The notes: generated from the sequence alone by a model not told the origin. Counted from the whole stretch's first letter, positions 1,339-60,092 are shown. The stretch: DNA of 60,223 bases, filler included, from Coriobacteriales bacterium (GCA_031263105.1; 7 parts of 7 records of this genome joined end to end with filler, not necessarily neighbours in it); one strand, 5' to 3'. Numbers and translations: made by a program.

Positions 1339-1509
1339 GTCACTGGCTCCCTTAACGGACACCCCACTGTCATTCCGAGCCTGCCGAGGAATCCTCGACC
1401 GCGCAAGCGGCCGACCGCAGGTCGAAGGACCCCCTGACCTGCCGTTGGACACTGCGTGTCCAAAGATTCCTCGGCGGGCTCGGAATGACAGTGGGGTGCG
1501 GACAGTAAC
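1339..1509. repeat. Palindromic MITE/REP-like element, copy 1
   Basis: Inner inverted repeat CCCCACTGTCATTCCGAGC...GCTCGGAATGACAGTGGGG (1362-1496); outer ends GTCAC...GTAAC. Confidence 0.9.
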
Positions 1510-1533
1510 TCGGCTGTGGCCGCAGGCCCCGCA

Positions 1534-4500
1534 TCACTCCAAGCGGCCCAGATAGTCGTCTATCAGCCACTGCTCGAAGGCGGACTGGAGCTTGCGGTGC
1601 TCGGGGGGCTTGGGGTCGCCCTTCCTGTGGCCTCCCTCCCCTTTGGCGCTGCTGGCGTAGACCGATGCCGCCTTGAGCTGCGCGAGCTGCGGGGAGCCCT
1701 CGAAGGCCGAGGTGTCGAACAGGCCGTTCTGGATGCGGTGCCAGACCGCCCGTATCAGGAGCCGCAGGTGCTCCAGCTCCTCGTCCGACGCCTCGACGAA
1801 AAGCGGTTCGACGAGCCGCCCGTCGAGGTCCCGGTGCGGCTCGACGTACAGGTCGGCGACGCCTCGCACCGTCCAGCCTGCGTACTCGGCCGAGTGCTCT
1901 ATCAGCAGCTTGTAGAACTGCAGCTGGCGTCGGTAGGCGCCGCTCGGCTCCTTGGGTCTGCCCGCCTCGTCCAAGGCGTCCGGCCTGCCGGTCTTGAAGT
2001 CGTAGACCCAGACGGCCCTGGCCTCGTCGTCGAACTCCAGCAGGTCGCACTTGCCGACGAGCGGCACGCCGTCCAACTCGGCGCTCACCCACTGCTCGGC
2101 GAGGAAGCGCGCCTTCAGGCGCGCGCCGAGGGCAGGGACGAAGACCTCGGCGACCCGGTCGAGGCGCTGGCGCATGCGCTCGCGGTCGATCGCGTCGAAA
2201 TCCATCCAGTCGATGCGCTCGCGGCAGCCCCGCACCAGCTGCGCCAGGTCCAGGTCGCCCGCCTTGACGACGTGGTCGAGGTAGTCCTCCATGAAGCTGT
2301 GGACGAGCGAGCCGAACTCGAGGCTGTAGCTGGGCGCCGTCGGAAGCCCCAGCAGGCTGTCCAGTATGAAGTCGAGCCCGGCCGCCCCCTCGTCGGCAGG
2401 GGCCGAGGCGGCGCCCTCCGGGTCGCCTGCCCGGTACTCGACGAAGCGGTTCAGGCGGGACGCCGCCATCTTGAGGTCCTTCAGGTACGGCGTTATGAGC
2501 GCGAGCAGGTCGGGCCCGCTGGGATAATAGCGCTGCTCCCAGCCCTGCTGCGCCTGCAGGACGATGTCCTGCACGTCAGGCTCGACGTCTCTGACCTCCA
2601 CCTCCTCCGCCAGCTCCCGGACCACCTCCCCTCTGCCGAACGACAGCTCGAGCAGGGTGCGCGCCCGCGTGAGCGCCACGAACAGGAGCCGCCGCGCGTC
2701 GTCGTCGTCCTTCTCGTTGCCGAACAGGAGGTTGGCGCTGCGCAGGCCGGCGCTCCTGCCCTTGTAGTGCCAGGTGGCGTTGTCCAGGTCGATCAGGTAG
2801 ACCAGGTCGTACTCGAGGCCCTTCGAGCCATGGGCCGTCGTCAGCGTTATCGCGTCCTTGCGGCCTATCGGGATGTCGGCCTCGACCTTGAGGTCGAAGC
2901 GGTCCGCCTGGTCCATCAGAGCGACCGCATCGGACAGCCGCGCATTGGGGCCGAGCACGCCTGCGGTGCCGAGGTTCTCCTCCACGAAGCCGAGAAGGGC
3001 ACGCAGCCCGTAGTTGAACTCGATGAGGGGGAAGGGGTCCTCCTTCCCGGCTGCGACAAGGGGGCGCCCCACCCGCGCGGCCATCTCGTGGAGCACCTCG
3101 CGGACGGGACGGGCCAACGCGTGCGCCGCAAGCTCGACGAGCCAGGCATGCAGCGCACGCATGTCCTTGTCCGGGCAGGATGCGAGGGCGTCCATCCACG
3201 TCATCCTGTGGCGCTTCGTCTCCAGCGCGAACGTGAAGCAGGCCGTCGGCGCGATGCCGAACACGGGGTCGGCGACGATCTGCGGGAGGAAGGACTCGGC
3301 CAGCTCCGCCTTGCGCTCCGCCCAGGCCGCAGCGAAGCGCATGAGCGCGAACAGGGTCTGAAGCGAGGGTATCTCGGAGACCGCCGAGGTCACGCGGTAC
3401 TGGAAGGCTATGTCGAAATGGTTGAGATAGGGCAGCAGGTCACGGAGGCTCCTATGGGATGCGGCGATGACGGCTATCGCCTCCTGCGGCCTTGCTGCGG
3501 TGCGCAGGAAGCCCTCGTCGATCCTCTGGCGGATGGAGCGCGCGACCATGAGGTACTGGAGGTCCCTGTTCGGGTAGCGCCGTGCCGTGAAGGGGCGCGA
3601 CGCGGCCGACGGAGCGCACTCCTCCCCCGCGCCCCCGTCCTCCCGAAAGGCCACGAGCCTCTTCTCCGTGGCGCTCGCCGCCGAACGGGTCTCGATCTGA
3701 CGCGCCACCTGCTGGCCGAGCGCCACCAAGGGCGGCGTCGAACGGTAGTTGGTCTTGAGCACGATGCGCGCCACGTCGTCGTAGTGCTCCTCGAAGTGGT
3801 TGAGGTAGGCGACGCTCGCCCCCTGGAAGCGCATGATCGCCTGGTCGTCGTCGCCGACCGCCAGGACGTTGGGACGCGTGTCGTAGTCGGTCAACAGGTT
3901 GAGGATGCGCATCTGGGAGCTGTTGGTGTCCTGGAACTCGTCCACGAGGACGTACCGGTAGCGCTCCTGCAGCGCGTACTTCAGTTCGGGATGTCCCTCG
4001 ATGGCGTCTATGGCATCGAGGACCATGTCGTCGTAGTCGTACTGCGCGCGCTCCTTGAGCCGTGCGCGGTAGCCGTCGTAGAGGGCAAGCGCCGAAAGCT
4101 GGCGCTCGGCCACCTTCCGGTCCCTGAAGACGAGGCGCTTGGCGCCGTCCCGCCTGAAGAAGCGGTCGCGCAGGTCCGCGAAGCCCTGGGTCCTGCCCGT
4201 CTCCCCGTCGTAGAGCCTGGTCGTGGCAAAGGCCTCGGAGAAGAGCGCGACGTAAGGCCGATAGGCCCCCGTCCCCTTGTCCAGGTCGTCCTGCCAAAGC
4301 CCTGCGGGCGCCTGCGCCGAGGCCGCTGCCACCTGCTCCTGGAGCGCGTCGAGCAGCTCCCGCTTCTGCGCCTTGCCGAGGGCAAGGCTTACGCCCATCC
4401 GCTCCATGAGGGCGTCCTGACGCTCCATGTACGAGAAGAACGCCTGGTTCTGTTCGACGATCGCCCTGAACTCCTCGGAGCGCAGGCCGGATCTCCTCAG

Positions 4501-4974: not shown

Positions 4975-5147
4975 CTCTCATCTCCTCAATCGGGAACGGA
5001 ACAAGTCAGTGTTTCCCTCGGCACTTCCCTAGGGAAGCGCCGATTTATTCATTGTGCACCATCTCACGCCTGATCTGCCCCAGCTCTGCCCGTGAACGCA
5101 ACGCCATTACCGCAAGTAGTGGCGTTGCGCCCCCGAACAGACCTGGG

Positions 5148-5247
5148 NNNNNNNNNNNNNNNNNNNNNNNNNNNNNNNNNNNNNNNNNNNNTTAATTAAT
5201 TAANNNNNNNNNNNNNNNNNNNNNNNNNNNNNNNNNNNNNNNNNNNN
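5148..5247. other. Artificial contig linker
   Basis: 100 nt of N with central TTAATTAATTAA (stops in all frames). Confidence 0.99.
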
Positions 5248-5360
5248 CACTGCCGCCCCGGGCCCCGCTGCCGCCCCGGGCCCCCGCTGCCGCCCCGGGC
5301 CCCGCTGCCGCCCCGGCCCCCCGCTGCCGCCCCGGGCCCCCGCTGCCGCCCCGGGCCCCC
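5248..5360. repeat. GC-rich 18-19 bp tandem repeat abutting the MITE
   Basis: About 6 units of CCCC(C)GCTGCCGCCCCGGG. Confidence 0.85.
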
Positions 5361-5507
5361 ACTGTCATTCCGAGCCTGCCGAGGAATCTTCGACCGCGCA
5401 AGCGGTCGACCGCAGGCCGAAGGGCCCCCTGGCCTGCCGTTGGACACTGCGTGTCCAAGGATTCCTCGGCGGAGCTCGGAATGACAGTGGGGGGTGTGAG
5501 CAGTAAC
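5356..5507. repeat. Palindromic MITE/REP-like element, copy 2
   Basis: Same inner inverted repeat; right end GGGTGTGAGCAGTAAC. Confidence 0.9.
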
Positions 5508-5613
5508 CCCTTGCCTCCGTGCGATACCATGTTCCCTTCTCATCCGAACCCCGACCGCCTTATTGATATATGATAGGGATATCTGATAGGGAGCGAGACA
5601 GAGATGAGGGGAC

Positions 5614-8016
5614 ATGCACCCAGAGGAGAAGGCTCGGCAGGTCATAGACGAGAAGTTGGCCCGTGCCGGATATCTCGTCCAAGACGTCATCGAACTTGAT
5701 CTGTCCGCTGCTCTCGGAATAGCCGTCAGAGAGTACCAGACCGACTCCGGGCCAGCCGACTACCTGCTGTTCATCGACAGGAAGCCGGTCGGCATCATCG
5801 AGGCCAAGGCCCACAACAAAGGCGAGACCCTGCTGTCGGCCGCAGAGCAGACGAGGCGGTACGCAGGCAGCGGATTGCAGTATATCAAAGGTCCTGTCGA
5901 TATAAGGTTCGCTTACGAAGCAACCGATGTCCTCACGCATTTCTGCGACTACCACGACAAGAAGTACCGTTCCCGTGAAGTATTCTCGTTCCACCGGCCC
6001 GAACAGCTCAAGGCATGGCTTGACGACGAAGAGACTCTCAGGAACCGCATGAGGGGCTTCCCGGCGTTCGACCCAACAGGGTTTCGCGATTGCCAGACCA
6101 GGGCGATAACCAATTTGGAGAACTCGTTTGCCGGCGGTCGCCAAAGGTCGCTTATTCAGATGGCCACCGGCGCCGGCAAGACCTTTGCGGCAATCACCAG
6201 CACCTACCGCCTTCTGAAGCATGCAAAGGCCAAGCGCATCCTCTTCCTTGTAGACACAAAGAACCTTGGGGAGCAGGCCGAGGAGGAGTTCAGACGCTAC
6301 CGGCCCACCGATGACGCGAGGTTGTTCCCAGAGCTGTACAACGTCTGTCGATTGTCCTCTTCGTCGATACCGCCGGACACCGATGTCTGCATCAGCACGA
6401 TACAGAGGATGTATTCGATTCTCAGACAGGAGGACCTGGACGAATCGCTGGAAGAAGTCTCTCAGAACGAGTTGACCTTGAGCGGCACGGTGCAGGATGT
6501 CGTCTATAACAACGACTACCCGCCGGAGTACTTCGACTTCATTGTCATCGACGAGTGCCACCGTTCCATCTACAACGTCTGGCAACAGGTGCTCGACTAC
6601 TTCGATGCATTTCTGGTCGGCCTTACCGCCACGCCGGACAAGCGCACGTTCGCCTTCTTTGCAGAGAACATCGTCAGCGAATACACCCACGAAGAGGCAG
6701 TCATCGACGGGGTGAACGTCGGTGGCGACATCTACCTGATAGAGACCGATATCTCTAAAAACGGCGCACTCATCGTAAAGCAGGTGGTGGAGAAACGCGA
6801 CCGCCTCTCCCGGAAGAGACGCTGGGAGCAGATCGACGAGGACATCCAGTACACTTCCTTCAACCTGGACAGGGACATCGTGAGTCCTTCACAGATACGA
6901 ACCGTCATCCGTGCCTTCAAAGACAAGGTGACGACAGAGATATTCCCTGGGCGCCAAGAGGTTCCAAAAACATTGGTCTTTGCCAAGACCGACAGTCACG
7001 CAGACGACATCATCAGGGTCGTCCGCGAAGAGTTCGGCGAGAGCAACGAGTTCTGCAAGAAAATCACGTACCAAGCAAAAGACCCCAAGGACGTGCTCTC
7101 CTCGTTCAGGAACGAATACTATCCACGAATCGCTGTGACCGTCGATATGATAGCCACCGGCACCGACGTGAGGCCTTTGGAGTGCCTGCTGTTCATGCGC
7201 GACGTGAGATCCAAGAACTACTTTGAGCAGATGCTCGGGCGAGGTCGCAGGGTGCTCGGCTACGACGACTTGAACCGCGTCTCGCCTTCGGCCAAGACCC
7301 CGAAAATCAGTTATGCGATAATCGATGCCGTCGGTGTGACCAAAAGCATCAAAACAGAGGCCAGGCCGTTGGACCGCAAGCCCTCCGTCTCTATGAACGA
7401 GCTGATGAACAGCGTTGCGGTTGGGGCAAGGGACGACGACACGGTTACCACCCTCGCCAACAGGCTGTTACGGCTGAACGTCGCCATGACCCCAGTCGAA
7501 CGTGACAGGGCACAGGAGCTGGCTGGCGGTACCCCGCTGAACCTGGTGGCGAAGCGGATGCTGGATGCCTATGACGAGGATGTCGTCGCAGGGAATGCAC
7601 GGGAAAGAGCCGTTGGCGAGCCGACCGGGCAGGAGATGCTCTGGAGTGCCTATGAGATAGCCCAAGGCGACAAGGTCGGAGAGAAAGGCCTCGTCAACAA
7701 GCTTGTGGACATCATCGCCTTGCTCCGTTTCGAGCTGGGACAATCCCAAAAGCTCGTGTCGTTCAAGTCGTTCGTTGACAGCAGGTTCAAGGATTGGGTG
7801 TTCGCAAAGAACGCCGGTCACGTCCACTTCACCGATGAGCAGATGCAGTGGCTGAGGATGGTGCGCGACCATATATCCGTCTCAGCCCATATCGAGACGG
7901 ACGACCTGGAGCTTACGCCGTTTGACGACGAAGGAGGGCTGGGCCGGTTCTACAGTCTATTTGGCGAGCACTATCAAGCCACGCTCGACGACCTCAACTA
8001 TTCGCTCGTTGCCTGA
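5614..8016 (+). CDS. hsdR: Type I restriction enzyme subunit R (EcoEI/EcoAI-like), possibly with an internal deletion near the C-terminus
   Basis: ADYLL...IIEAK nuclease motif; MATGAGKT, IDECHRS, LTATP, ATGTD and QMLGRG helicase motifs. Confidence 0.92.
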   Translation: MHPEEKARQVIDEKLARAGYLVQDVIELDLSAALGIAVREYQTDSGPADYLLFIDRKPVGIIEAKAHNKGETLLSAAEQTRRYAGSGLQYIKGPVDIRFAYEATDVLTHFCDYHDKKYRSREVFSFHRPEQLKAWLDDEETLRNRMRGFPAFDPTGFRDCQTRAITNLENSFAGGRQRSLIQMATGAGKTFAAITSTYRLLKHAKAKRILFLVDTKNLGEQAEEEFRRYRPTDDARLFPELYNVCRLSSSSIPPDTDVCISTIQRMYSILRQEDLDESLEEVSQNELTLSGTVQDVVYNNDYPPEYFDFIVIDECHRSIYNVWQQVLDYFDAFLVGLTATPDKRTFAFFAENIVSEYTHEEAVIDGVNVGGDIYLIETDISKNGALIVKQVVEKRDRLSRKRRWEQIDEDIQYTSFNLDRDIVSPSQIRTVIRAFKDKVTTEIFPGRQEVPKTLVFAKTDSHADDIIRVVREEFGESNEFCKKITYQAKDPKDVLSSFRNEYYPRIAVTVDMIATGTDVRPLECLLFMRDVRSKNYFEQMLGRGRRVLGYDDLNRVSPSAKTPKISYAIIDAVGVTKSIKTEARPLDRKPSVSMNELMNSVAVGARDDDTVTTLANRLLRLNVAMTPVERDRAQELAGGTPLNLVAKRMLDAYDEDVVAGNARERAVGEPTGQEMLWSAYEIAQGDKVGEKGLVNKLVDIIALLRFELGQSQKLVSFKSFVDSRFKDWVFAKNAGHVHFTDEQMQWLRMVRDHISVSAHIETDDLELTPFDDEGGLGRFYSLFGEHYQATLDDLNYSLVA

Positions 8017-8050
8017 CGGGCGACCCTGAAGACACTGAAGAAAGGCACGT

Positions 8051-9043
8051 ATGGTACCGAACACCTCTAACATCAATGCCAAGATCTGGTCCATGGCGAC
8101 CGTCCTTATGAACGACGGCGTCTCGAACAGCGACTACTTGGAGCAGCTGACCTATCTTCTCTTCCTTAAGATGGCCGAGGAGTACAGCAACCCGCCGTTC
8201 AACCGTGACATCGGAATACCGGATGACTGTCGTTGGCAGACCCTTGTCAGCAAGAAGGGAGACGAGCTGGACAGGCACTATACCTACATCCTCACCACGC
8301 TGGCAGAGCAGAGGGGCACCCTTCAGCAAATCTACACCAATGCCAAGAACATGGTCAGCACTCCGGCGATGCTCGCCCGCATCATCAAGATGATTGCCGA
8401 TGAGAACTGGTCGTCGATGTCTGCCGACGTGAAGGGCGACATCTATGAGGGCTTGCTGCAAAAGGTCGCCGAAGACACCAAGAGCGGAGCGGGGCAGTAT
8501 TTCACTCCGCGTTCGCTGACAAGCACGATGGTCGCATGCGTTCGGCCGCAGCCGAACCGTACTGTCGCCGACCCCTGCTGCGGCAGCGGGGGCTTTCTGT
8601 TGGCCACAAAGGACTACATCGAGGACAACTTCTCGCTCGACCGCGACCAGAAGCAGTTCTTGAAGTTCAAAACGTTCAGAGGCTGGGAGATTGTGCCGCG
8701 TACCTATCGGATGTGCCTGATGAACCTCTTCCTGCATAACATCAGCGATTTCGACGGCGTGCCGCCCATCGAGCGCAACGACTCCCTTACTGCTGACCCG
8801 GGCGAGCGCTTCGACTACGTGCTCACCAACCCGCCTTTCGGCAAGAAGTCATCGCTCACCTACACCAACGAGGAGGGCGGGCAGAGCACCGAGGACCTCG
8901 TTTACAACCGTCAGGACTTTTGGGCCACCAGCTCCAACAAGCAGCTGAACTTCGTCCAACATATCCACACGTTGCTGAAGACCGGCGGCACCGCTGCCGT
9001 TGTCGTGCCGGACAACGTGTTGTTCGAGGGCGGTGCATTATGA
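8051..9043 (+). pseudogene. hsdM: Type I R-M methyltransferase subunit M, 3'-truncated
   Basis: GAGQYFTPR, DPCCGSGGFL and NPPF motifs; ends just after VVVPDNVLFEGGA at 330 aa, missing the usual C-terminal part; no hsdS follows. Confidence 0.85.
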
Positions 9044-9045
9044 GG

Positions 9046-9216
9046 GTTACACGTCACACCCCACTGTCATTCCGAGCCTGTTGAGGAATCTTCGGCCGCG
9101 CAAGCGGTCGATCGCAGGTCGAAGGGCCCCCTGACCTACCGTTGGACACTGCGCGCCCAAAGATTCCTCGGCAGGCTCGGAATGACAGTTGAGGGTCTGA
9201 GGGTGTGAACAGTAAC
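9046..9216. mobile_element. Palindromic MITE, copy 3, with perfect 8-bp target site duplication
   Basis: GTTAC...GTAAC termini flanked by TTATGAGG at 9038-9045 and 9217-9224. Confidence 0.9.
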
Positions 9217-9239
9217 TTATGAGGAGATTGGGAGTAACG

Positions 9240-10316: not shown

Positions 10317-10475
10317 AAGACGAGCTTGTGGCTTTCTGCTGCAAGACTGTGACGAAAACCCGAGGATGCGTCGTCTCGATGCGTTCGGTACACAATGCCC
10401 TGTTTCGTTACACTTTTCTCCAGAAACATACTAAAATGGCCTGTAACCGATAGGCCGTACCGAGAAGGAGGCATC

Positions 10476-14437: not shown

Positions 14438-14625
14438 CACTGTCATCCCGAGCCTGCCGAGGGAGCTTCGGCCGCGCCAGCGGCCGACCGCAGTCGAAAG
14501 GCGCTTCGGCCTGCAGTCGGCTGCTTCGCGTCCCGTGGGCCTGTCGGCCCGTCCTCGCTGAAAACGCGGTGCGTTTTCCGGGCGCTCGGACCCAAGGATC
14601 CCTCGGCAGGCTCGGGATGACAGTG
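14438..14625. repeat. Palindromic MITE/REP-like element, copy 4 (inner inverted repeat only, variant core)
   Basis: CACTGTCATCCCGAGCCTGCCGAGGGA...TCCCTCGGCAGGCTCGGGATGACAGTG. Confidence 0.88.
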
Positions 14626-21351: not shown

Positions 21352-21454
21352 CGAACCATCCTTAGAACGAGAGATACTTAAAAAATCTGAAGTATATTTT
21401 CCAACAGTCCGCAGATTTGTCAAGGGACACGATGCCTGTCTCCCAGGAAAAGTA

Positions 21455-21564
21455 GTTACCGTTCACACCCACTGTCATTCCGAGCGGAGACGCTGCCGGA
21501 GGCAGCGCCGCAGCCGAGGAATCCTCAGTGGGCCTCGGGATGACAGGGAGGTGTGAACAGCAAC
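21455..21564. mobile_element. Palindromic MITE, copy 5 (short core), near-perfect 7-bp flanking duplication
   Basis: GTTACCGTTCACACC...GGTGTGAACAGCAAC; flanks AAAAGTA and AAAAGCA. Confidence 0.8.
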
Positions 21565-27965: not shown

Positions 27966-29456
27966 TCACTCCTCTCCCCGGCCCTCCTCCTCGCGGTCGC
28001 GTTCGACGGCCTCGCTGCGGTAGGACTCCCAGCCGCGCTCGCCGGGCGTGAAGAACGCACCCTTCTCCAGGCCGTCCGGCAGGTACTGCTGCGTAAGCCA
28101 GCCCCGCGCGTCGGTGTGCGGGTAGCGGTAGGGGGCGTAGGCCTCGGCACCTGGGCGGTGGCGGTCGCGCAGATGGTTGGGCACCGTGCGCAAAGGGCCG
28201 CTCTTGACCTCGCCGAGCGCACGGTATATGGCGTTGGTCGCGCTGTTGGACTTGGGGGCGAGCGCCATGTAGAGGGCAGCCTGCGAGAGGTTGAGCTGGC
28301 ACTCGGGATACCCGATGGACTCGGCAGCCTTGAACGCGGCCTGGGCGACGAGCAACGCCTGGGGGTCCGCGTTGCCGACGTCCTCGCTCGCGAAGATGAG
28401 GATGCGGCGCGCGATGAACTTGGGGTCCTCCCCGCCCTCGATCATGCGGGCGAGCCAGTAGACCGCCGCGTCGGGGTCGCTGCCCCGCATGGACTTGATG
28501 AAGGCGGAGATGACGTCGTAGTGGACGTCGCCCTTCCTGTCGTAGGGGAGCATGCGCCGTGGCGACGCCTCGAGGACCGCCCGCGTCGTGATGGCGGGCA
28601 GCGCAGGCGCATCCCCGGTCTTATCCCCATTCCCAGCGTCCGCGCCCCCGGCGTCATCCCCAGCATCGGCATCCGCGCCCCCGGCGTCCCCGGCCTCGGC
28701 CTCTTCGTCCCCAGCGTCCGCGCCCCCCGCATCCCCGCCCTCGAACTCCAGGCGCTCCTCGCTCGTAAGGGCCTCGGGCACACGGGCGACCTCGGCGGCG
28801 AGCTCGAGCGTGGTCAGCGCCATGCGCGCGTCCCCGCCGGACATGACCGCGATGGCGGCGAGCGCCGCGTCGCTGAGGCGGTAGGCGCCGGCCAGGCCTC
28901 GCTCGTCGACGAGCGCGCGTTCGATGACGCGCTCGATGTCCGCACGGGAGAGCTCCTTGAACTCGATGACGCGGGAACGCGAGATCAGTGCGCTGTTGAC
29001 CTCGAAGAAGGGGTTCTCCGTGGTCGCGCCGATGAGGATGACCACACGGTCCTCGACGGCATGCAGCAAGGCGTCCTGCTGCGAGCGCGAGAAGCGGTGG
29101 ATCTCGTCGACGAAGAGGATGGTGCGCAGGTTCTGGAGCGTCAGGCGCTGCGACGCCTCGTGTATCACGCGGCGCAGGTCGCCCACGCCCCCGCTGATGG
29201 CGGAGACCTCGGTGAAATGGGCCTGCGTGGCCCGGGCGACGATACGCGCGAGCGTGGTCTTGCCGGTGCCCGCAGGCCCGTAGAGGATGAGGGGCGAGAG
29301 GCTGTCTGCCTCGATGGCGTTGCGCAGCCACGTGCCCTCGCCGACGACCTCGAGCTGCCCCACCAGCTCCTCAAGGGTGGCGGGGCGCATCCGTACCGCC
29401 AAAGGCGCGACGCTGCCCAGGGCATCGTATTCCAAGGATGAGAACAGGGTTTCCAT
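27966..29456 (-). CDS. rarA: Replication-associated recombination protein A
   Basis: PLAVRMRP, GPAGTGKT, VDEIHRF, GATTENP and ISAFIKSMRGSDPDA motifs. Confidence 0.95.
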   Translation of the reverse strand: METLFSSLEYDALGSVAPLAVRMRPATLEELVGQLEVVGEGTWLRNAIEADSLSPLILYGPAGTGKTTLARIVARATQAHFTEVSAISGGVGDLRRVIHEASQRLTLQNLRTILFVDEIHRFSRSQQDALLHAVEDRVVILIGATTENPFFEVNSALISRSRVIEFKELSRADIERVIERALVDERGLAGAYRLSDAALAAIAVMSGGDARMALTTLELAAEVARVPEALTSEERLEFEGGDAGGADAGDEEAEAGDAGGADADAGDDAGGADAGNGDKTGDAPALPAITTRAVLEASPRRMLPYDRKGDVHYDVISAFIKSMRGSDPDAAVYWLARMIEGGEDPKFIARRILIFASEDVGNADPQALLVAQAAFKAAESIGYPECQLNLSQAALYMALAPKSNSATNAIYRALGEVKSGPLRTVPNHLRDRHRPGAEAYAPYRYPHTDARGWLTQQYLPDGLEKGAFFTPGERGWESYRSEAVERDREEEGRGEE

Positions 29457-29529
29457 GCGCCCCATTATAGACCGTGCGCCGTGCGGCGCATACCGCAGAC
29501 GACAACCGTGCGTTGCAACCGTGCCCCAC

Positions 29530-29706
29530 GTTACTGGTCACACCCTCCACGGACACCCCCACTGTCATTCCGAGCCCGTCGAGGAATCTTCGACCGCGCC
29601 AACGGTCGACCGCAGGTCGGGGGGGCCCCTGACCTACCGTTGGACACTGCGTGTCCAAGGATTCCTCGGCGGAGCTCGGAATGACAGTGGGGGTGCGAGC
29701 CGTAAC
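29530..29706. mobile_element. Palindromic MITE, copy 6, with 7/8 target duplication
   Basis: GTTAC...GTAAC termini; flanks TGCCCCAC and TGCGCCAC. Confidence 0.88.
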
Positions 29707-29869
29707 TGCGCCACATGCCATATGCGGCACCGCGCATCCAAGCGATTGCCTGCATGGGGACAAACGGGTACTATTTCTAGGGAAGCGTCGATCTGCTCAT
29801 TATGCGCCATCTGGCACACAGGTGATTAACCGACACTTCCCCGGGCAACTCCCTAGTGAGGGGTGTCAC

Positions 29870-39642: not shown

Positions 39643-39721
39643 GGCATCTTCCTTAGTCTAGCTAACAGAACTAAGTTTAAGTGCCGCAAGCAGCCCTGTC
39701 AACTCGTCGTACTCTTAGGAA

Positions 39722-39928
39722 GTTACTGTTCACACCCCCAGTTACTGTTCACACCCCACTGTCTGTTCACACCCCACTGTCATCCCGAGCCTGCCGAGGG
39801 ATCCTCGGCCGCGCCAGCGGCCGACCGCAGGTCGAAGGCCATCCTGATCTGCGGTTGGACACTGCGTGCCCAAGGATTCTCACGCTGCGCGCCCTTGCGG
39901 GCGCTCCGCTCAGAATGACAGTAGTAGC
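39722..39928. mobile_element. Palindromic MITE, copy 7, with triplicated left terminus
   Basis: GTTACTGTTCACACCCC twice plus a third CTGTTCACACCCC; flanks CTTAGGAA and ATTAGGAG (6/8). Confidence 0.82.
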
Positions 39929-43705: not shown

Positions 43706-43825
43706 CACCCCACTGTCATTCCGAGCGCAGCGAAGCGGAGCCGAGGAATCTTCGGTCGCGGAGCGACCGACCTCAGGCAGAGGCGCCCCCCGGTCGCGAT
43801 CGGTCGCTCCGCGACCGAAGATTCC
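43706..43825. repeat. Palindromic MITE/REP-like element, copy 8 (cut by contig end, different core)
   Basis: CACCCCACTGTCATTCCGAGCG...GGAATCTTCGGTCGCGGAGCGACCGA...TCGGTCGCTCCGCGACCGAAGATTCC. Confidence 0.85.
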
Positions 43826-43925: not shown

Positions 43926-44115
43926 TTGGTCACCGACATCCCCCGCGTCGCCGCCCAGGCCCAGGCCCAGGCCCTCCCCATCTTCTCCTTCGACGACCCT
44001 TGTCCTCTGGCAGACTTCCTCATGGCGCTCAGAAGGCAGAGCGGACAGCGGCGGGCCGCCCCCGCCCCCCCCCCCCCGCGCCCGCGCGCGGGGGGGGGGG
44101 GCCCGCGCCCGCCAG

Positions 44116-44679
44116 TCAGCTCTTCCTTATGAGCGCCATGAGGAAGTCTGCCAGAGGACAAGGGTCGTCGAAGGAGAAGATGGGGAGGGCCTGGGCCTGG
44201 GCCTGGGCGGCGACGCGGGGGATGTCGGTGACCACGGCGATGACCTCGTTGTCCTCTGCACCCAAGTCACGGTTGCAATCCTTGGGGTTCGCGGCACGGA
44301 ACAGCTCGATGGTCGGCAGCTCGCCATGGCGGTAGCCTTCGACGAGCACGAGATGGGGGGCGTCGCCCAAGATCCGGGACTCGAGGGCCATCATCTCGAT
44401 GAGCTCGACGACCTTGGGCTCGCAGGCAGGGTCGAGGCTGCGCACCGAGGCCATCTGGTCGGGGGCGGCAACGATGGTATGGACGCTGCCCGCCCGACGA
44501 TGACGCCAGGAGTCCTTGCCCTCGATGTCGAACTCGAAGCCTGCATGTGAATGATGCTTGATGGTGGCGACGCGCACCGCACGCTCCGTGAGCTCGGCAA
44601 CGACCTTCTCCAGCAGGGTCGTCTTGCCCGAGTTCTGCTTGCCGACGAACGCGACTGCGGGCAGGGCTGTCTGGGTCAT
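44116..44679 (-). CDS. mobB: Molybdopterin-guanine dinucleotide biosynthesis protein B
   Basis: GKQNSGKTT, IKH, GKDSWRH and VLVEGY motifs. Confidence 0.92.
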   Translation of the reverse strand: MTQTALPAVAFVGKQNSGKTTLLEKVVAELTERAVRVATIKHHSHAGFEFDIEGKDSWRHRRAGSVHTIVAAPDQMASVRSLDPACEPKVVELIEMMALESRILGDAPHLVLVEGYRHGELPTIELFRAANPKDCNRDLGAEDNEVIAVVTDIPRVAAQAQAQALPIFSFDDPCPLADFLMALIRKS

Positions 44680-45382: not shown

Positions 45383-45383
45383 C

Positions 45384-48150: not shown

Positions 48151-48396
48151 GTTACTGTTCACACCCCACTGTCATTCCGAGCTCCGCCGAGGAATCTTTG
48201 GACACGCAGTGTCCAACGGCAGGCCAGGGGGCCCTTCGACCTGCGGTCGGCCGCTGGCGCGGCCGAGGATTCCTCGGCCGGCTCGGAATGACAGTGGGGC
48301 TCGGGGCGGCAGTGGGGCTCGGGGCGGCAGTGGGGCTCGGGGCGGCAGTGGGGCTCGGGGCGACAGTGGGGTATCCGTGGGGGTGTGAACTGTAAT
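48151..48396. mobile_element. Palindromic MITE, copy 9, with internal 18-bp tandem array
   Basis: GTTACTGTTCACACCCC...GGGGTGTGAACTGTAA; CAGTGGGGCTCGGGGCG(G/A) four times at 48292-48363. Confidence 0.88.
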
Positions 48397-51082: not shown

Positions 51083-51093
51083 TGCACCGCTCC

Positions 51094-51720
51094 TCAGCTC
51101 AGGAAGTACACGTTCGGGCCGGTGCCCTGGCCCTCCAGCAGGCGCTCGTAATCGCGCGAGGCGACGAGCCTGGACACCTCGGAGTCAGGGTCGTCGAGGT
51201 CGCCGAAGAAGCGCGCCATCGCACGGCAGAGGTCGGCGCAGGCCGGGCGCTCCCCCCGGTCGATGCGGTGGACGCAGAACAGGCATTTCTCCACCACGTT
51301 GGGGTGGTGCGGCAGCGCGTCGGCGTCTCCGACGGCGAAGTCCAGGTAGAACTGCGGCTCCCCGTCGACGTAGGTGCGCACGCCCTCGTAGGGGCAGGCC
51401 TCCATGCACAGTTTGCAGCCTATGCACTTTTCGTTGTCCTGGACGACGATGCCGTCCTCCCGCTTGGAGATGGCCTCCACGGGGCACACCGCCAGGCAGG
51501 CCGGGTTGTCGCAGTGCTGGCAGGCCAGGGTGTAGTGCTCCATGCTGAGGGCGTCCGGGTAGGTGCCTGCGGGGGTGTACATCTCCTCGCCCCCGACCGT
51601 CCTGGCCTCGTTCCAATGCACGCCGATCGGCAGGTTGTTCTCCATCTTGCACGCCATGGCGCAGTTGTTGCAGGCGACGCAGCGGGCCTTGTCTACCACC
51701 ATCGCATATTTGGTCATCAC
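51094..51720 (-). CDS. DmsB-like 4Fe-4S dicluster subunit (copy 1)
   Basis: CVACNNC, CQHCDNPAC, CIGCKLC and KCLFC motifs; AGGAGG RBS. Confidence 0.92.
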   Translation of the reverse strand: MMTKYAMVVDKARCVACNNCAMACKMENNLPIGVHWNEARTVGGEEMYTPAGTYPDALSMEHYTLACQHCDNPACLAVCPVEAISKREDGIVVQDNEKCIGCKLCMEACPYEGVRTYVDGEPQFYLDFAVGDADALPHHPNVVEKCLFCVHRIDRGERPACADLCRAMARFFGDLDDPDSEVSRLVASRDYERLLEGQGTGPNVYFLS

Positions 51721-51729
51721 GCGCCTCCT

Positions 51730-54171
51730 TTATGCCTTCTCGACTTGGCAGAGCCAGTCGTTGAAGTTGTCGTTGCTGGTGATCGGGTCGAGGCACATGG
51801 CCGTCAGCTGCTGAGGGTGGCCCTCGATGAACTCGTCTTCCTGCCAGCCGTGGGGCATAAGCACGGTCTCTGCTTGGATGCCTTTTGTGACGACTGCCGT
51901 AAGGGTGCAGGAGCCGTGGTCGTTGAAGACGCGCACGGCATCGCCTGTCCTTATCCCGCGTTCCGCTGCCGCGTCCTCGTGTATGCGCATATAGGGCTTG
52001 CCTTCGTAGCCCCTGAACTCGTCCAACAGGGGGTTGTGCGTGAACATGCCCTGCGCATGGTAGTTGTCGTGGTAGCTCAGGCCGAAGAGGGGGTATCGCT
52101 CGCGCAGGGGGTTCGACTGGTACGCCTCGTAGGCATGCTCGTAATAGGGTATCCTGTCGATCGGCCTGACTTCCTGCCCGTAGTCGTCTCTCGGCTCGAA
52201 CTCCTCCAGGTAGAACTGGGTGCGCCCTGTGGGGTTGAACTCCGGCAGCACGCTCTCTGCGTACTCGAACTCGCCGAAGATGATGCCCTTTTCCTTGTAG
52301 TCGTCGTAGGCAACGCCGGCCTCGATGTTCTCAGGAGTATCCAGAATTGCCCGCAGGTACTCCTCGGCTGACTTGGTGTAGAGGTCGTCGTATCCCATAT
52401 GCTCGGCTATTCCCTTGAATATCTCGAAGTCGGTCTGGCACTCGCCGGCCGGCTCGACGGCCTTTTGCATCATATAGGTTCCGATGAAGTCCTCGGACTC
52501 CCACGACAGGGCAACGGGCAGCACCAAGTCTGCCCACTTCGCCGTGTCGGTCATAAAGGGGTCGGCCACGACGACGAAATCGACCTTGCTGATGGCCTCG
52601 CGCAGGTAAGTGGCCCCGAGAGAGCTGTGCAGAGGGTTGCTCGCCAGCGTGTACAGGCAACGTATGGTGAAGTCCTCGCCTGCCCATGTGCCGGTCTCCA
52701 TGATCTCATAGAGGTATTCGCCGGTGATGACCTTGTTCGTTTTTGCATCGGCAATCGTACGGTCGCTCCAGTCGTTCGTAATAGGAGCCTTGGTGAGCTT
52801 GCTGGCCGCAGAGCTAAAGCCGGAGGAATAGCCAGACCCGGGGACTCCAAAGTTCCCGGTCAAGGAGGCAAGCAGGGGGAACGCGAGGTACACGCGCCAG
52901 GAGTTCCACGTGTGCTCGATGCCCCAGTTGTTGGAGAGCAGGGCGGGCTTGTTCGTGGCATAGACCTGCGCTATCTCCTCTATCTGTGCCGCCGGCACGC
53001 CGCATTCCTCGGCGGCCCACTCAACCGTGAACGGCATCAGGTTCTCAAGGACAAGGTCGTAGACCGTGCGGACGCTTGTGCCGTCGGCGTCAAAGCTGCC
53101 GGTCAGGGCCGGGTCTGCCACCGTCCGGGACGAGCCGAAGGTCTGGGTCTTTTCGTCATAGACCGCTATGGAATCCAAGTGCGTAGGCTCGCCGTCGCTC
53201 CCGGCCGACCCCTCTTCGAGGTCCATCCCCAGATCCGACAGCCTGAGGTACCTGCCGTCCTCTTTTATAAGGAGCGGCCCGACCGACTTGTTCCTCATGT
53301 AGTCATAGTCCACGAGGTCGTTGTCGATGATGTAGTTGCACATGGCCAGGGCCATGGCCGCATCCGAGCCGACGCGGATCGGCACCCACGTGTCGGAGTG
53401 GGCGGCCGCGTTGGTGTATTGGGGGTCGATCGTGATGAGCCTGGCCCCGTTCTCTTTTGCCTTGCAAATGAAGGGCCAGTGTGCACGCTGGGCATCGGTG
53501 GGGTTGGCCCCCCAGAGAAGAATGGTCTTCGAGTTCTGGAAGTCCTCTATCGAGTTGAACGGAGCCTGCAGCACCGAAAACTGGAAGAACAGCTGTGCGA
53601 CATCGAAGGACATGGTGAGTATCGTGCAGCCGACCGTTTGGACGAAGCGCTCTTGGGCGATTCCGGCGGTCAGTACGCGTGGCTGGCTGTTGGCACCATA
53701 CGTGGCACTGGTTCCTGCGCCCGTTATGTAGCCGCCGGAGTTCCCGCCGCCTATCCAAACGCCGATGGATTCCGGTCCGTACTCGTCGATTGCCGCCTGG
53801 AACTTCTCGGCCACAAGCGAGAGGGCCTCGTCCCAGCTGACCTGCTCCCAGTTGTCGGAGCCGCGCTCGCCGGTCTGCCTCATGGGGTACAGCACTCGGT
53901 TCGTCGCGTAAAGGCGCAAGGGGTTGGAGTGGCCTTTCACGCAGCCGTTCTGGTGAGTCATGCGAGCTTCTTGCGGGACAACGACAGGCGTACTGCGCAC
54001 GACCTTCCCCTCGCGGACAGTCGCCACCAAAGGGCAGGCACCCCCTCCGCAGTTTCCACGGCATTTGTTGTAGTACACCTTCTCCGCCGCCCCCTGCGCC
54101 TCGCCCCCTGCGGCATCCGGCCCAGCCGGTGCCGTCGGCTCGACCGAACTGCATCCATAGCCGCCCGCTAA
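51730..54171 (-). CDS. DMSO-reductase-family molybdopterin oxidoreductase (copy 1), lacking a convincing start and Tat signal
   Basis: CRGNCGGGAC...GCVKG cluster motif; WGANP, IDP and DLVLP motifs; C-terminal Mo-binding domain; homology to copy 2 starts at LAGGYGC. Confidence 0.88.
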   Translation of the reverse strand, partial: LAGGYGCSSVEPTAPAGPDAAGGEAQGAAEKVYYNKCRGNCGGGACPLVATVREGKVVRSTPVVVPQEARMTHQNGCVKGHSNPLRLYATNRVLYPMRQTGERGSDNWEQVSWDEALSLVAEKFQAAIDEYGPESIGVWIGGGNSGGYITGAGTSATYGANSQPRVLTAGIAQERFVQTVGCTILTMSFDVAQLFFQFSVLQAPFNSIEDFQNSKTILLWGANPTDAQRAHWPFICKAKENGARLITIDPQYTNAAAHSDTWVPIRVGSDAAMALAMCNYIIDNDLVDYDYMRNKSVGPLLIKEDGRYLRLSDLGMDLEEGSAGSDGEPTHLDSIAVYDEKTQTFGSSRTVADPALTGSFDADGTSVRTVYDLVLENLMPFTVEWAAEECGVPAAQIEEIAQVYATNKPALLSNNWGIEHTWNSWRVYLAFPLLASLTGNFGVPGSGYSSGFSSAASKLTKAPITNDWSDRTIADAKTNKVITGEYLYEIMETGTWAGEDFTIRCLYTLASNPLHSSLGATYLREAISKVDFVVVADPFMTDTAKWADLVLPVALSWESEDFIGTYMMQKAVEPAGECQTDFEIFKGIAEHMGYDDLYTKSAEEYLRAILDTPENIEAGVAYDDYKEKGIIFGEFEYAESVLPEFNPTGRTQFYLEEFEPRDDYGQEVRPIDRIPYYEHAYEAYQSNPLRERYPLFGLSYHDNYHAQGMFTHNPLLDEFRGYEGKPYMRIHEDAAAERGIRTGDAVRVFNDHGSCTLTAVVTKGIQAETVLMPHGWQEDEFIEGHPQQLTAMCLDPITSNDNFNDWLCQVEKA

Positions 54172-54291
54172 AGTCGACTCTTCTTGTTCGGACACCTCGC
54201 CATCAAGGGATTCATCGAACAATGGGCTTTGTGCTGGCTGGAGACAGAACGCCCTGAAACACCAATGGTGTCGACAACCGACAGGCGAACC

Positions 54292-54462
54292 TCAAATCCG
54301 ATTAATCAGCTGTTCATGTACTATCTCAAATGCCCTGTGTGGGTCATATTCGATTCCAGGCCTGATCAGTGCATCAACATCCTTGACGAATTCCCCATCA
54401 CCCATTTTCAGGCTGAGGTTTCCCAGATACACCTCACTGGATGGATGGGGCTGCGGAACCAT
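54292..54462 (-). pseudogene. Internally deleted AbiEii-like toxin remnant (56 aa)
   Basis: TGATG-coupled to the AbiEi stop; MVPQ start joined directly to a C-terminal-like segment NLSLKMGDGEFVKDVDALIRPGIEYDP. Confidence 0.6.
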
Positions 54463-55286: not shown

Positions 55287-55492
55287 GCACTCATTCTGCG
55301 ATACAGTACCGTATGTGTATGTTAGCGCAGAATTAGCAGCTTGGCAATGCCACCCGAACGTCAGGAATGTGTCTTGACGGGCGCACGTTCGGGCCGACGC
55401 CCTGCTCCTGAACTGGTCGTCCAAGCGCCTGGTGCCCGCCCAAAAGCGGGGGGAGATGGTCTTCGTGCACTATGCCGAGGAGCCCCGGGGCC

Positions 55493-56752: not shown

Positions 56753-56893
56753 CCTGTGCCTATCTGTTGAGTCAGGAGTGCCGTGGATGGATTCCGTTGA
56801 CTCTGTAGATTATAGGCCATTTACTCTGGAAAATAGAGGACGACCAGTCTGAACCTGGCATGACGACCCAGCAGCGACCAGCAGCGCCCCATC

Positions 56894-57523
56894 TCAGGTC
56901 AGGAAGTACACGTTCGGGCCGGTGCCCTGTTCCTCGAGAAGGCGCTCGTGGCTGCGCGAGGCGAGGGCCTTGGAGACCTCGGAGGCCGGGTCGTCGAGGT
57001 CGCCGAAGAGGCGCGCCATCGCCCTGCATATGTCCACGCAGGCGGGGCGGTCGCCTCGATCGATGCGGTGCACGCAGAACTGGCACTTCTCCACCACGTT
57101 GGGGTGGTGCGGCAGGGCGTCCGCGTCGCCGACGGCGAAGTCCAGCAGGTAGCTCGGCTCCCCGTCCACATAGGTGCGCACGCCCTCGTAGGGGCAGGCC
57201 TCGATACAGAGCCTGCACCCGATGCACTTCTCGTTGTCCTGCACGACGATGCCGTCCTCCGGACGGCGCACTATCGCCTCCACGGGGCAGACGGCCAGGC
57301 AGGCCGGGTTGTCGCAGTGCTGGCAGGCCAGGGTGTAGTGCCCCATGCTGAGGGCGTCCGGGTAGGTGCCGGAGGGGGTGTACATCTCCTCTCCCCCGAC
57401 AGTGAGGGCCCTGTTCCACCAGACGCCGTCCGGCAGGTTGTTCTCCACCCTGCAGGCCATCGCGCAGTTACTGCAGGCGACGCAGCGGGCCTTGTCCATC
57501 ACCATCGCGTACTTGGTCATCAT
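56894..57523 (-). CDS. DmsB-like 4Fe-4S dicluster subunit (copy 2)
   Basis: Close paralog of 51094-51720 with the same Cys motifs; AGGAGG RBS. Confidence 0.92.
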   Translation of the reverse strand: MMTKYAMVMDKARCVACSNCAMACRVENNLPDGVWWNRALTVGGEEMYTPSGTYPDALSMGHYTLACQHCDNPACLAVCPVEAIVRRPEDGIVVQDNEKCIGCRLCIEACPYEGVRTYVDGEPSYLLDFAVGDADALPHHPNVVEKCQFCVHRIDRGDRPACVDICRAMARLFGDLDDPASEVSKALASRSHERLLEEQGTGPNVYFLT

Positions 57524-57531
57524 GCGCCTCC

Positions 57532-59955
57532 TTATGCCTTCTCGACCTGGCAGAGCCAGTCGTTGAAGTTGTTGTTGCTGCTTATCGGGTCGAGGCACAT
57601 CGCCGTCAGCGTCTGCGGATGACCTTCTATGAACTCGTCCCCTTGGTACCCATGGGGGACGAGGATGGTGTCCGAGCGGATCCCCTTGGTGACGACCGCC
57701 CTCAGCGTGCAGGACCCATGGTCGTTGAAGACCTTGACGACGTCGCCGGTGGCTATCCCTCGCTCTGCCGCCGCATCCTCGTGGATGCGCATGTACGGCT
57801 CGCCTTTGAGGCCTCGAAGCTCGTCCAGCCAAGGGCTGTGGGCGAAGATCGACTGGGCATGGTAGTTGTCGTGATAGCTCATGCCGAAGAGCGGGTACTT
57901 CTCACGCAGCGGGTTGCCCTGATAGGCCTCGAAGGCATGTTGATAGTAGGGGATGCGGTCCGTTGCGCTTATCGTCTGCCCGCAGTCGTCCCTTGGCGGA
58001 AGCGTCTCCAGATAGAACCGCGTGCGCCCTGTCGGGTTGGCCTCTGTGCCGACGTTCTCGCCGTACTGGTAGTCGCCGAGGATGATTCCCTGCTCCTTGT
58101 AGTCGTCAAAGGCACAGCCGACCTCGATGTTCTCAGGGGTGTCGAGGATCCTGCGCAGGTAGTCTTCGGCTGACAGGTCGTACAGGTCGGAGTGCCCGAG
58201 CTTCTCAGCCAGGCCCTTCAGTATCTCGAAGTCGCTTTTGCACTCGCCTGCCGGCTCGACCGCCTTCTGCGTCATGAAGGTGCCGTTGAAGTCCTCGTTT
58301 TCCCAGGACATGGCCACAGGGAGCACCAGGTCGGCGTACTGCGCCGAGTCTGTCATGAAGGAGTCGGCGACAACGAGAAAGTCCACCTTGTCGAACGCCC
58401 GTTTGATATAGGTGGCCCCGAGGCAGCTGTGCAAGGGATTGCTCGTCATCATATAGACGCAGCGTATCGGCATATCCGCGCCCGCCCAGGTGCCTGTGTC
58501 CGTGATCTCGCAGATTCTCTCTCCCGTTATTACCTTGTTCTCCTTTGCGTCAGGGATAACCAAGTCGCTGAAATCCGTCTTTACCGGGGACTTCACGAGT
58601 TTGCTCGCCATGCCGCTGAAGCCTGTCGCGTATCCCGAGCCCGCAACGCAGGCGTTGCCCGTGAGCGCGGCAAGGAAGGGCAGGTCGAGATAGATCTGCC
58701 ATGAGTTCCACGTGTGCTCCATGCCCCAGTTGTTCGATATCAGGGCAGGCTTGTTCGTCGCATACAGCAGCGCCAGCTCCTCGATCTGCTCGACGGGGAT
58801 GCCGCACTCCTCGGATGCGAACTCGACGGTGAAGGGCCTGATCTGCTCCCTCACCAGATCGTAGACCGTGCGCACGGAAGTGCCGTTCGCGTCGAAGCTG
58901 CCCTCAAAGGCCGGATCCTCGACAGTCCGGGAGGAGCCGAAGGCGCCGGCCGCCTCGTCCCAGACGACCTCTGAGTCCAACGACGTCGCCTTGCCCTCTG
59001 CGTCAGGTGGGCCCTCCACGGGATCCATGCCCAGATCCGAGAGCCTGAGGTGGCTGCCGTCCTCCTTTATCAGCAGCGGGGCCACCGAGTGGTTCCTCAG
59101 ATAGTCATAATCGACCAGAGCGTTGTCGATGATGTAGTTGCACAGAGCCAGCATGAGGGCACCGTCAGAGCCGACACGAATGGGGATCCACGTATCCGAA
59201 TGGGCTGCCGCATTGGTGTATTGGGGGTCTATGGTGACCACGGTCGCCCCGTTCTCCTTCGCCTTGCAGATCCAGGGCCAATGGTTGCGGGCGGCATCGG
59301 TGGGGTTGGCCCCCCAAAGGAGGATCGTCTTTGCGTGCTGTATGTCCTCGGCCGAGTTGATGGGCGCCTGGAGCACGGTCGCCTGAAAGTACAGCTGGGC
59401 GATGTCATGCGACGAGGAGAAGATCGTCACCCCGGTTTTCTTGAGGAACCGTTCGAGGGCGATTCCAACCGTGGGGACTCTGGGGGAGTTCGCGAAATAG
59501 GTGAAGTTGCCGTTGAGGTATCCGGTTGTGTTGCCTGCACTGAGCCAGAAGGCGATCGACTGCGGCCCGTAGTCGTCGATCGCACCTTGGAACTTCTCGG
59601 CCACAAGCGAGAGGGCCTCGTCCCAGCTGACCTGCTCCCAGTTGTCGGAGCCGCGCTCGCCGGTCTGCCTCATGGGGTACAGCACACGGTTGGTCGCATA
59701 CAGCCTCAGAGGGTTCGTGTGCCCCTTGACGCAGCCCAGCGGCAGGCCCTCCGCCTCTCTCGGGACGACCACAGGTGTGGTACGGACGACCTTCCCCTCG
59801 CGCACCGTTCCCTCAAGCGGGCATTGCCCTCCGCAGTTTCCCCGGCACAGGTTGTAGTACACCTTCTCCACCACCCCCTGCGCCTCGCCCCCTGCGGCAT
59901 CCGGCCCAGCCGGTGCCGTCGGCTCGACCGAACTGCATCCATAGCCTCCCGCTAA
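57532..59955 (-). CDS. DMSO-reductase-family molybdopterin oxidoreductase (copy 2), signal region disrupted
   Basis: CRGNCGGQC...GCVKG motif; paralog of copy 1; frame open back to SATLLLAGGYGC, then a stop at the MITE boundary. Confidence 0.88.
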   Translation of the reverse strand, partial: LAGGYGCSSVEPTAPAGPDAAGGEAQGVVEKVYYNLCRGNCGGQCPLEGTVREGKVVRTTPVVVPREAEGLPLGCVKGHTNPLRLYATNRVLYPMRQTGERGSDNWEQVSWDEALSLVAEKFQGAIDDYGPQSIAFWLSAGNTTGYLNGNFTYFANSPRVPTVGIALERFLKKTGVTIFSSSHDIAQLYFQATVLQAPINSAEDIQHAKTILLWGANPTDAARNHWPWICKAKENGATVVTIDPQYTNAAAHSDTWIPIRVGSDGALMLALCNYIIDNALVDYDYLRNHSVAPLLIKEDGSHLRLSDLGMDPVEGPPDAEGKATSLDSEVVWDEAAGAFGSSRTVEDPAFEGSFDANGTSVRTVYDLVREQIRPFTVEFASEECGIPVEQIEELALLYATNKPALISNNWGMEHTWNSWQIYLDLPFLAALTGNACVAGSGYATGFSGMASKLVKSPVKTDFSDLVIPDAKENKVITGERICEITDTGTWAGADMPIRCVYMMTSNPLHSCLGATYIKRAFDKVDFLVVADSFMTDSAQYADLVLPVAMSWENEDFNGTFMTQKAVEPAGECKSDFEILKGLAEKLGHSDLYDLSAEDYLRRILDTPENIEVGCAFDDYKEQGIILGDYQYGENVGTEANPTGRTRFYLETLPPRDDCGQTISATDRIPYYQHAFEAYQGNPLREKYPLFGMSYHDNYHAQSIFAHSPWLDELRGLKGEPYMRIHEDAAAERGIATGDVVKVFNDHGSCTLRAVVTKGIRSDTILVPHGYQGDEFIEGHPQTLTAMCLDPISSNNNFNDWLCQVEKA

Positions 59956-59984
59956 GAGGAGGGTGGCCGATGGGCAGCAAGAGC

Positions 59985-60092
59985 GCTACTGTACACACCC
60001 CACTGTCATTCCGAGCGCAGCGAAGCGAAGTCGAGGAATCCTTGGATCCGAGCGCCCGGAAAACGCACCGCGTTTTCAGCGAGGACGGGCCG
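59985..60092. repeat. Palindromic MITE/REP-like element, copy 10 (partial)
   Basis: GCTACTGTACACACCCCACTGTCATTCCGAGCG; core is the reverse complement of part of the copy 4 core. Confidence 0.82.

Follow-up and report, generated by a model that had tools for sequence, protein, structure and literature searches.

A REP-carrying MITE family with IS66-type ends and a fixed spacing to promoter-like motifs in a Coriobacteriales genome

The window analysed here is a stretch of 60,223 nucleotides from a Coriobacteriales metagenome-assembled genome (GCA_031263105.1, called G000 below; 2.9 Mb in 250 contigs, 86% complete). It is composed of seven contigs (C242-C248) joined by N44-TTAATTAATTAA-N44 spacers. 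The genes in the window are ordinary and include those for type I restriction, a carboxylase, RarA, PFOR, NrdD and molybdoenzymes. No transposase was found among the scanned open reading frames (ORFs) of the window, and Rfam and ARAGORN yielded no matches in it. Scattered between these genes is a family of short nested palindromes, in which a pair of hairpins resembling repetitive extragenic palindromes (REPs) is enclosed by an outer inverted repeat. We consider it probable, at roughly three chances in four, that the family is a non-autonomous miniature transposable element of the inverted-repeat type (MITE) with the ends of an IS66 insertion sequence, which carries the hairpin pair as cargo, duplicates 8 bp of its target, and is likely moved in trans by a TnpC transposase that likely chooses its targets by their distance from sigma70-type promoters and not by their sequence.

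An earlier, sequence-only reading of the window had listed ten copies. Inner arms are present at all ten starts, and a partial eleventh copy (76..103) had been missed; it lies where a contig begins and consists of a right inner arm and a worn outer end. Copy 3 (9046..9216) is complete, folds into a single long hairpin (z -9.8), and is flanked by a perfect duplication, TTATGAGG, at 9038-9045 and 9217-9224. This duplication contains the overlapping stop codon of an hsdM-like ORF and the ATG of the next ORF, and thus both ORFs survive the insertion. Copy 6 (29530..29706) is also complete, with a duplication of 7/8, and copy 7 (39722..39928), whose left end is tandemly repeated and whose right end is worn, has one of 6/8. 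The short form at copy 5 (21455..21564) shows the 6/7 match that had been claimed for it, which becomes only 4/8 when the flanks are scored as an 8-mer. Copy 1 (1339..1509) is of the main core type with worn outer ends and is located 17 bases 3' of a stop codon, and copy 9 (48151..48396) contains four tandem 18-bp worn arm copies within its right end. Neither has a duplication, and copy 4 (14438..14625) is an inner dimer without outer ends, all as previously described. Contig edges adjoin the remaining copies. In copy 2 (5248..5507), tandem worn arm copies extend up to the edge in place of the left outer end. Copies 8 (43706..43825) and 10 (59985..60130, end approximate) are cut, as had been noted, and the latter passes into G/C-run sequence at the contig end.

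Genome-wide, the inner arm has 1305 matches in about 512 loci, or one locus per 5.7 kb. Both outer ends were found in 167 loci, of which 146 have a single unambiguous pair and 143 could be scored for flanking duplications. The complete loci are mostly 160-260 bp long, non-coding, and bounded by terminal inverted repeats, which are the characteristics of a MITE. An 8-bp duplication is perfect in 57 of the 143 pairs and matches in at least 7 of 8 positions in 76, compared with 0.38 and 0.62 expected when left flanks are shuffled against right flanks. Thus, the duplications proposed from the window are far more frequent than chance. Perfect flank matches at lengths of 4-7 and 9-15 number zero or one each, so that of the 7-8 bp originally suggested only 8 bp stands. 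There is no target consensus at the duplications. About a third of the pairs (49/143) score 4/8 or lower. Arms lie within 300 bases of 196 of the 500 contig ends, and 19 element ends find their 8-mer partner at a different locus (5.4 expected), mostly at contig breaks and in a few cases internally. Missing duplications can therefore be attributed in part to assembly breaks and to exchange between copies.

The search for empty sites, which the sequence-only reading had proposed as a check, succeeded for paralogous sites. The flanks of the copy at C15:8449-8610 match contigs C145 (96.6% over 89 bases) and C232 (95.5% over 88), where the 8-mer is present once, and the copy at C148:6083 has paralogous empty sites in C35 and C57. 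Another copy (C172:7345) is inserted in the arm of a different copy, whose 8-mer is doubled. Junction queries gave spanning matches in 13 of 86 cases, mostly to the query itself or to the family, and four of these are usable, one of them weak. Polymorphism was also sought in the contigs of the one public run that contains the stretch, which is labelled termite gut metagenome and is probably the source sample; no RNA run containing it was listed. Among the 15 of 38 joints listed when these contigs were compared with a 19-kb stretch, no exact skip of a copy was found; in one diverged contig, 189 bases are missing around an 85-bp copy, so that the skip is imprecise. The copy at C197:6315 interrupts an ABC-transporter gene, but this case was not counted, because removal of the copy with one duplication does not rejoin the frame. 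Insertions are stacked at one site in a single case in this genome and in a few cases in G023, a genome from another genus, where one locus (L060) has two MITEs that share a thrice-repeated 8-mer.

No long member of the family with an ORF was found in this genome, in which the longest duplication-flanked pairs span 447-557 bp, besides one 6.5-kb pair with worn ends. Such members exist elsewhere. The ends were searched for as motifs in 41 genomes, and G020 carries a 2302-bp element with GTTAC ends (15/16 matching), a 7/8 duplication, and one ORF of 575 amino acids with PF03050 (E 8.5e-20), zf-IS66 and DUF6444 domains. Relatives of this element occur in 4 of 401 genomes of the order. The terminal 20 bases of the MITE are identical (20/20) to the right end of an IS66 element in G392, and equally to the right end of the autonomous element L036. 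A metagenome scan with these 20 bases recovered 25 loci, of which five have a TnpC gene beside the end, including a complete 2249-bp element, and 11 are MITE-like with other hairpin cargo. PF03050 was found in L001, P0001 and L008, with the D, D and E motifs aligned. The autonomous elements also duplicate their target, with 8/8 matches in L344, L346 and a G047 end pair, 7/8 in L001 and 5/8 in L036; L345 is mismatched. One metagenome contig (L030) has two IS66 ends arranged back to back, 9 bases apart.

The ISBst12 group of IS66 elements is characterized by GTAA ends and a size of 1.35-1.9 kb. The partner elements have GTTAC or GCTAC ends and a size of 2.2-2.3 kb, which differ from both criteria, and they are accordingly filed under the IS66 family and not the ISBst12 group proper. 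The GTTAC-ended TnpC proteins form one clade that is sister to GTAAC-ended single-ORF IS66 proteins (SH-aLRT 100 from a fast IQ-TREE run that did not finish; FastTree support 1.0 with three more members). G512 was kept outside the trees and end analyses, and three long or short rows outside the FastTree tree. Clade members have about 100 more N-terminal residues than their sisters, and a structural model (pLDDT 82) shows a helix of 90 residues at positions 56-145, in a region that sister TnpCs lack. More than 3000 proteins are similar to one clade member at E 1e-40 or better, not all of which are demonstrated clade members. We are highly confident that a TnpC of this clade mobilises the MITE in trans. 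The expectation that the mobiliser lies outside the window is therefore borne out, and of the types first named for it (transposase, GIY-YIG or other) the transposase is the one that stands.

The ISBst12 group includes ISDge4, an element of proven mobility with a single ORF, an 8-bp duplication and GTAAC/GTGAC ends (PMC12898284). ISDge4 shares with the GTTAC clade a single TnpC with DDE_Tnp_IS66, zf-IS66 and DUF6444 domains, the 8-bp duplication, and ends of the form GT.ACT..TCA. The clade differs in its GTTAC ends, in its size, and in the longer N-terminus of its TnpC. In addition, that report describes ISDge4 as caught in a coding region in a selected event, whereas the separate GTTAC clade has a fixed spacing to promoters.

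This spacing was scored in the 84 copies with a duplication of at least 7/8 as a strict -10-like motif, TAnn(A/C)T, located 60-64 bases from the element end. The motif is present in 46 of the 84 copies and is on one side only in 45, compared with a background at random intergenic points of 3.1% (non-divergent) and 4.0% (divergent). A looser motif is present in 54 of the 84 (background 6-8%). The hexamer starts 61-63 bases from the end and faces away from the element, with a TTG at 38-40. In the aligned sites the TTG is 23 bases upstream of the -10 box and the -35 signal is 17 bases before the box. In 72 of 79 cases the neighbouring gene is directed away from the element. The peak has no orientation bias (22 versus 25).

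In the window, copies 2, 6 and 7 fit this pattern. A TATGAT box (5569..5574, plus strand) lies 61 bases from the right end of copy 2, upstream of an hsdR-like gene that starts at 5614. Copy 6 has boxes on both sides: TATAAT (29464..29469, minus strand), 60 bases from its left end at the head of a rarA-like gene, and TACTAT (29769..29774, plus strand), 62 bases from its right end. A TAGACT box (39655..39660, minus strand) lies 61 bases from the left end of copy 7. To the left of copy 5, TATACT (21391-21396, minus strand) is at offset 58, just beyond the scored range, and copies 1, 3, 4 and 9 do not fit. The TATAAT box beside copy 6 is followed by an ATG seven bases on (29456-29469, minus strand), which suggests a leaderless rarA-like transcript.

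The spacing recurs beyond this genome. In G023, it is found in 24 of 30 complete copies (background 3.7% per window), and genus g89 of another family has 10 matches in 38 ends. Among nine autonomous elements with usable flanks, six (L001, L008, L036, L344, L345 and L346) have TAnnnT at 60-62 on one side; the back-to-back pair in L030 was kept out of this count. The spacing is found at none of 21 GTAAC-type sister ends, and chance matches to the end motif in viral contigs have the box in 4 of 78 cases, with about 2.9 expected.

One explanation for this pattern, which we consider improbable, is that an ordinary IS66 MITE inserts at random and selection has purged copies from genes and promoters, so that the survivors are those located immediately upstream of where the polymerase binds. 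The sparse occurrence of copies in called genes (3/167) is what such purging would produce, and so is their excess between divergent genes, where 61 of 135 intergenic copies lie in 13% of intergenic regions and 24% of intergenic length by simple gene calls. The motif is missing from at least a third of the copies, which is also compatible with this view. However, purging would yield an edge followed by a plateau, whereas the observed peak spans four bases and falls to background on either side. Over 506 ends, strong -10 boxes per 10 bases number 121 at 60-69 and 26 in each adjoining bin, with no plateau further out. Moreover, a second repeat family with IS5-like ends occupies the same intergenic space in this genome and has the spacing at 0 of 90 ends.

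A slightly weaker contender is that copies at this distance were favoured because the end of the element, by itself or through a bound host factor, serves as an activator site that lies upstream in constant phase with the promoter. Class I activators work at about -70, a position that suits the observed spacing, and the predominance of outward-facing genes fits as well. Nevertheless, scores of insertions would each have to be beneficial, in several genera, with different cargo and in either orientation, and the same spacing occurs beside autonomous IS66 elements. Thus, this account has little probability. It is very likely that the spacing of the IS66-ended MITE arises when the element inserts and is not a product of later selection.

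Under targeted insertion by the IS66 enzyme, a clade TnpC would pair both ends, as DDE enzymes do, and cut the target with an 8-bp stagger, the centre of the cut lying near -70 relative to the transcription start (with the first base of the -10 box counted as -12), just past the polymerase footprint. Such a cut would leave promoter and gene whole, and hundreds of copies could therefore be tolerated. The inner hairpins would ride along; their stems stay paired, and the hairpins are shuffled between copies. Since the distance is sharp and the cut site lacks a sequence preference, the landmark would seem to be a protein, in the simplest case RNA polymerase bound at the promoter. On balance, we lean slightly towards guidance by contact with this polymerase, possibly through the extra N-terminal helix of the clade. 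The helix would measure about 13-13.5 nm (about 40 base pairs), which is close to the 30-39 bases between the target and the -35 element, a match that is suggestive only.

Several observations weigh against this interpretation. The strict motif is absent from 38 of the 84 good copies and the loose motif from 30, and the copies lacking it include copy 3 of the window and the one on C15 whose empty site is the cleanest. The promoters considered here are motif matches and not mapped starts. Three autonomous elements, each seen from one end (L010, L016 and L017), do not have the motif there, and several autonomous hosts are AT-rich and hence offer more chance matches. The metagenome set is weak (8 matches in 26 ends, with a background of 0.46 per position), and the GTAAC control is small and includes some chance matches. 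Duplications in G023 are 9 bp in 3 of 30 copies and 7 bp in one of 30. No orthologous empty site was found among the relatives examined, which include no genome of the same genus. Searches of this assembly with tblastn, phmmer, Pfam and a clade profile returned no IS66 transposase; given the incompleteness of the assembly and the many contig ends that fall at an arm, this does not show absence from the organism. Among 35 main-type copies no two are identical, nearest neighbours being 88-97.5% alike, and there is no sign of current activity. The differences between all of these copies and the lack of an IS66 transposase in the assembly suggest that the burst of transposition may be over.

The cargo has the form TGTC-ATTCC...GGAAT, present in 536 units. 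The stem covaries, with T-A in 348 units, C-G in 173, and discordance in 15 (521/536 paired). The earlier assignment to the CGTC class of REPs holds in part. The TGTC tag and the A-T opening of the stem agree, but the unit has five perfect stem pairs, variable longer loops and a CCT or CTT tail, instead of the 8-9-bp stem, 4-5-base loop and CCA tail of that class. By the text descriptions of published families, the unit would thus be CGTC-like only. Left and right unit types agree in 45 of 81 copies, as expected from random assortment (45.5 on shuffling), and the outer ends of one copy agree in 53 of 112, compared with 25.6 by chance. These patterns suggest that selection or repair acts on each hairpin and that copies exchange halves.

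The same outer ends enclose unrelated hairpins elsewhere, which identifies the REP-like dimer as cargo. In metagenomes, they surround GTAG-headed dimers at 8 loci, a further hairpin type at 2, and at 1 locus a CGTC-like dimer that differs from the one here, and in genus g6 they enclose GTCATTGCG-type dimers. Most of these cases in which both ends are seen have 8-bp duplications. The composite pattern occurs in 15 of 401 genomes of the order; real composites are confined to G000 and three g6 genomes, and the other matches look like chance. The two-tier arrangement first proposed from the window, with a REP-like hairpin inside a shell that makes staggered cuts, is therefore upheld by the duplications, the empty sites and the exchangeable cargo.

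The inner dimer could instead be the mobile unit, moved by an HUH enzyme such as a REP-associated tyrosine transposase (RAYT) or by a GIY-YIG enzyme, with the outer repeat as a by-product or preferred landing site. We regard this as very unlikely. Pairing is retained in the unit stem, and 45 of 270 scorable complete dimers have no recognisable shell; most of these, however, show worn shell remnants. CGTC-like dimers are found in 9 of 19 arms of the IS5-like shell of the same genome, so REPs have entered shells more than once. The duplications are located outside the outer ends and never at the inner arms. The genome has four Y1 genes, of which two belong to IS200 elements within arms and two have unrelated flanking repeats, so that none is flanked by the same REPs as a RAYT gene would be. 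The sole GIY-YIG match in the genome is the N-terminus of UvrC, and that part of the initial proposal does not hold. HUH or GIY-YIG mobility may explain the original entry of the cargo. Both IS200-type tnpA elements (C168:12773 and C197:3704) sit in a CGTC-like MITE arm at an identical arm position. The two RAYT-like Y1 genes are located at C191:2860-3651 and C165:2223-3080, and on either side of the former are short repeats, expanded in tandem, that have no relation to the MITE family.

Nested REPs resembling this IS66-ended MITE have been described before. According to PMC3733652, both H. neapolitanus and A. variabilis have REP dimers within longer palindromes, and no dedicated transposase was found there for CGTC repeats. 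The inner unit is like those CGTC REPs in its TGTC tag, A-T stem opening, inverted dimers and nesting in an outer palindrome, and differs from what is described there in its stem and tail and in that the outer palindrome here is an IS66 end with target duplications. A closer parallel is QMITE2 of Coxiella burnetii, a MITE of 150-190 bp in which terminal repeats enclose a REP; it has direct repeats of 7-11 bp and also occurs in shorter forms that consist of the REP only (PMC5896051). It is itself the target of another insertion sequence. It differs, on that account, in having GTAG-type cargo, a mostly 3' position relative to genes, about 10-12 full copies, and no named mobiliser.

TnGBS/ISLre2 (p-MULT 3) and the ISKra4 group (p-MULT 4) are known to insert upstream of sigmaA promoters at a fixed distance, for which contact with RNA polymerase has been proposed (PMC3942029). 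In these elements, the distance to the -35 element is 15-17 bases, and both orientations occur if the ends are nearly identical. The MITE resembles these elements in its fixed promoter distance and use of both orientations, but its partner is IS66 by sequence and not Mutator-like, and its distance to the -35 element is 38-40 bases, apparently about two helical turns longer. A Mutator-like (ISLre2 or ISKra4) transposase as the mobiliser can be set aside as scarcely credible, although this is the only kind for which promoter homing was found described and although the TnpC model has a weak structural match to the Mutator-like ISCth4 transposase (its nearest solved fold, TM 0.31). All transposases found next to these ends belong to IS66, either by Pfam or because they match an IS66 query, and the identity of the ends already largely refutes the idea. 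The available text of PMC3942029 contains no mention of IS66.

Both REP-carrying MITEs and transposons that home to promoters are already known, each by itself. In the literature searched, which leaves most subscription journals and the main IS66 review uncovered, there is no report of promoter targeting by IS66, and within the same coverage of journals no description of IS66 MITEs with REPs was found. A large survey (bioRxiv 10.1101/2025.07.22.666184) mentions IS66, in its accessible part, only for a position between syntenic genes. If the spacing were absent, this would be just a common MITE of high copy number. With it, a second enzyme family would home at a longer distance, and a candidate ruler helix together with a sister clade that lacks both helix and spacing makes the polymerase-contact model testable. 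The MITE also provides a partial answer to what moves CGTC repeats, a question raised in PMC3733652, since here they ride in IS66 and IS5-like shells. A possible use is as a tool for non-disruptive insertion. It is a more speculative idea, and one that we hold only tentatively, that a widespread IS66 clade uses the 90-residue helix as a molecular ruler, which would measure from RNA polymerase on the promoter and place the cut at about -70. Such a ruler might provide a sequence-independent safe harbour before almost any gene, allow MITEs to reach one copy per 6 kb, and make IS66 shells one missing vehicle of CGTC and GTAG REP hairpins.

Tandem copies of the inner arm, 18-19 bp each, are present at the hairpin base at 5248-5359, 39722-39775 and 48298-48371, and 90 such arrays were found genome-wide. 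Those at contig ends may include assembly error. Changes at scored A/T positions of the arm in 337 units are mostly A to G (165) or T to C (148), compared with 19 transversions.

The second repeat family has CTAG-flanked ends, which we take to resemble those of the IS5 family, at 5029, 12942, 17917, 26393, 29777-29855 and 48507 in the window and at 90 positions genome-wide. Three identical ends of this family close contigs in the window, and some of its members carry CGTC-like REP dimers. Hybrids on C31, C48 and C154 join an IS5-like left end to an IS66-type right end. At the start of one contig, an inverted repeat of 152 bases centred on a G/C run (43927-44234) is probably an assembly fold-back. 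Finally, two paralogous molybdopterin oxidoreductase operons (51084-54222 and 56884-59955) are located 5.8 kb apart and are 78-95% alike.

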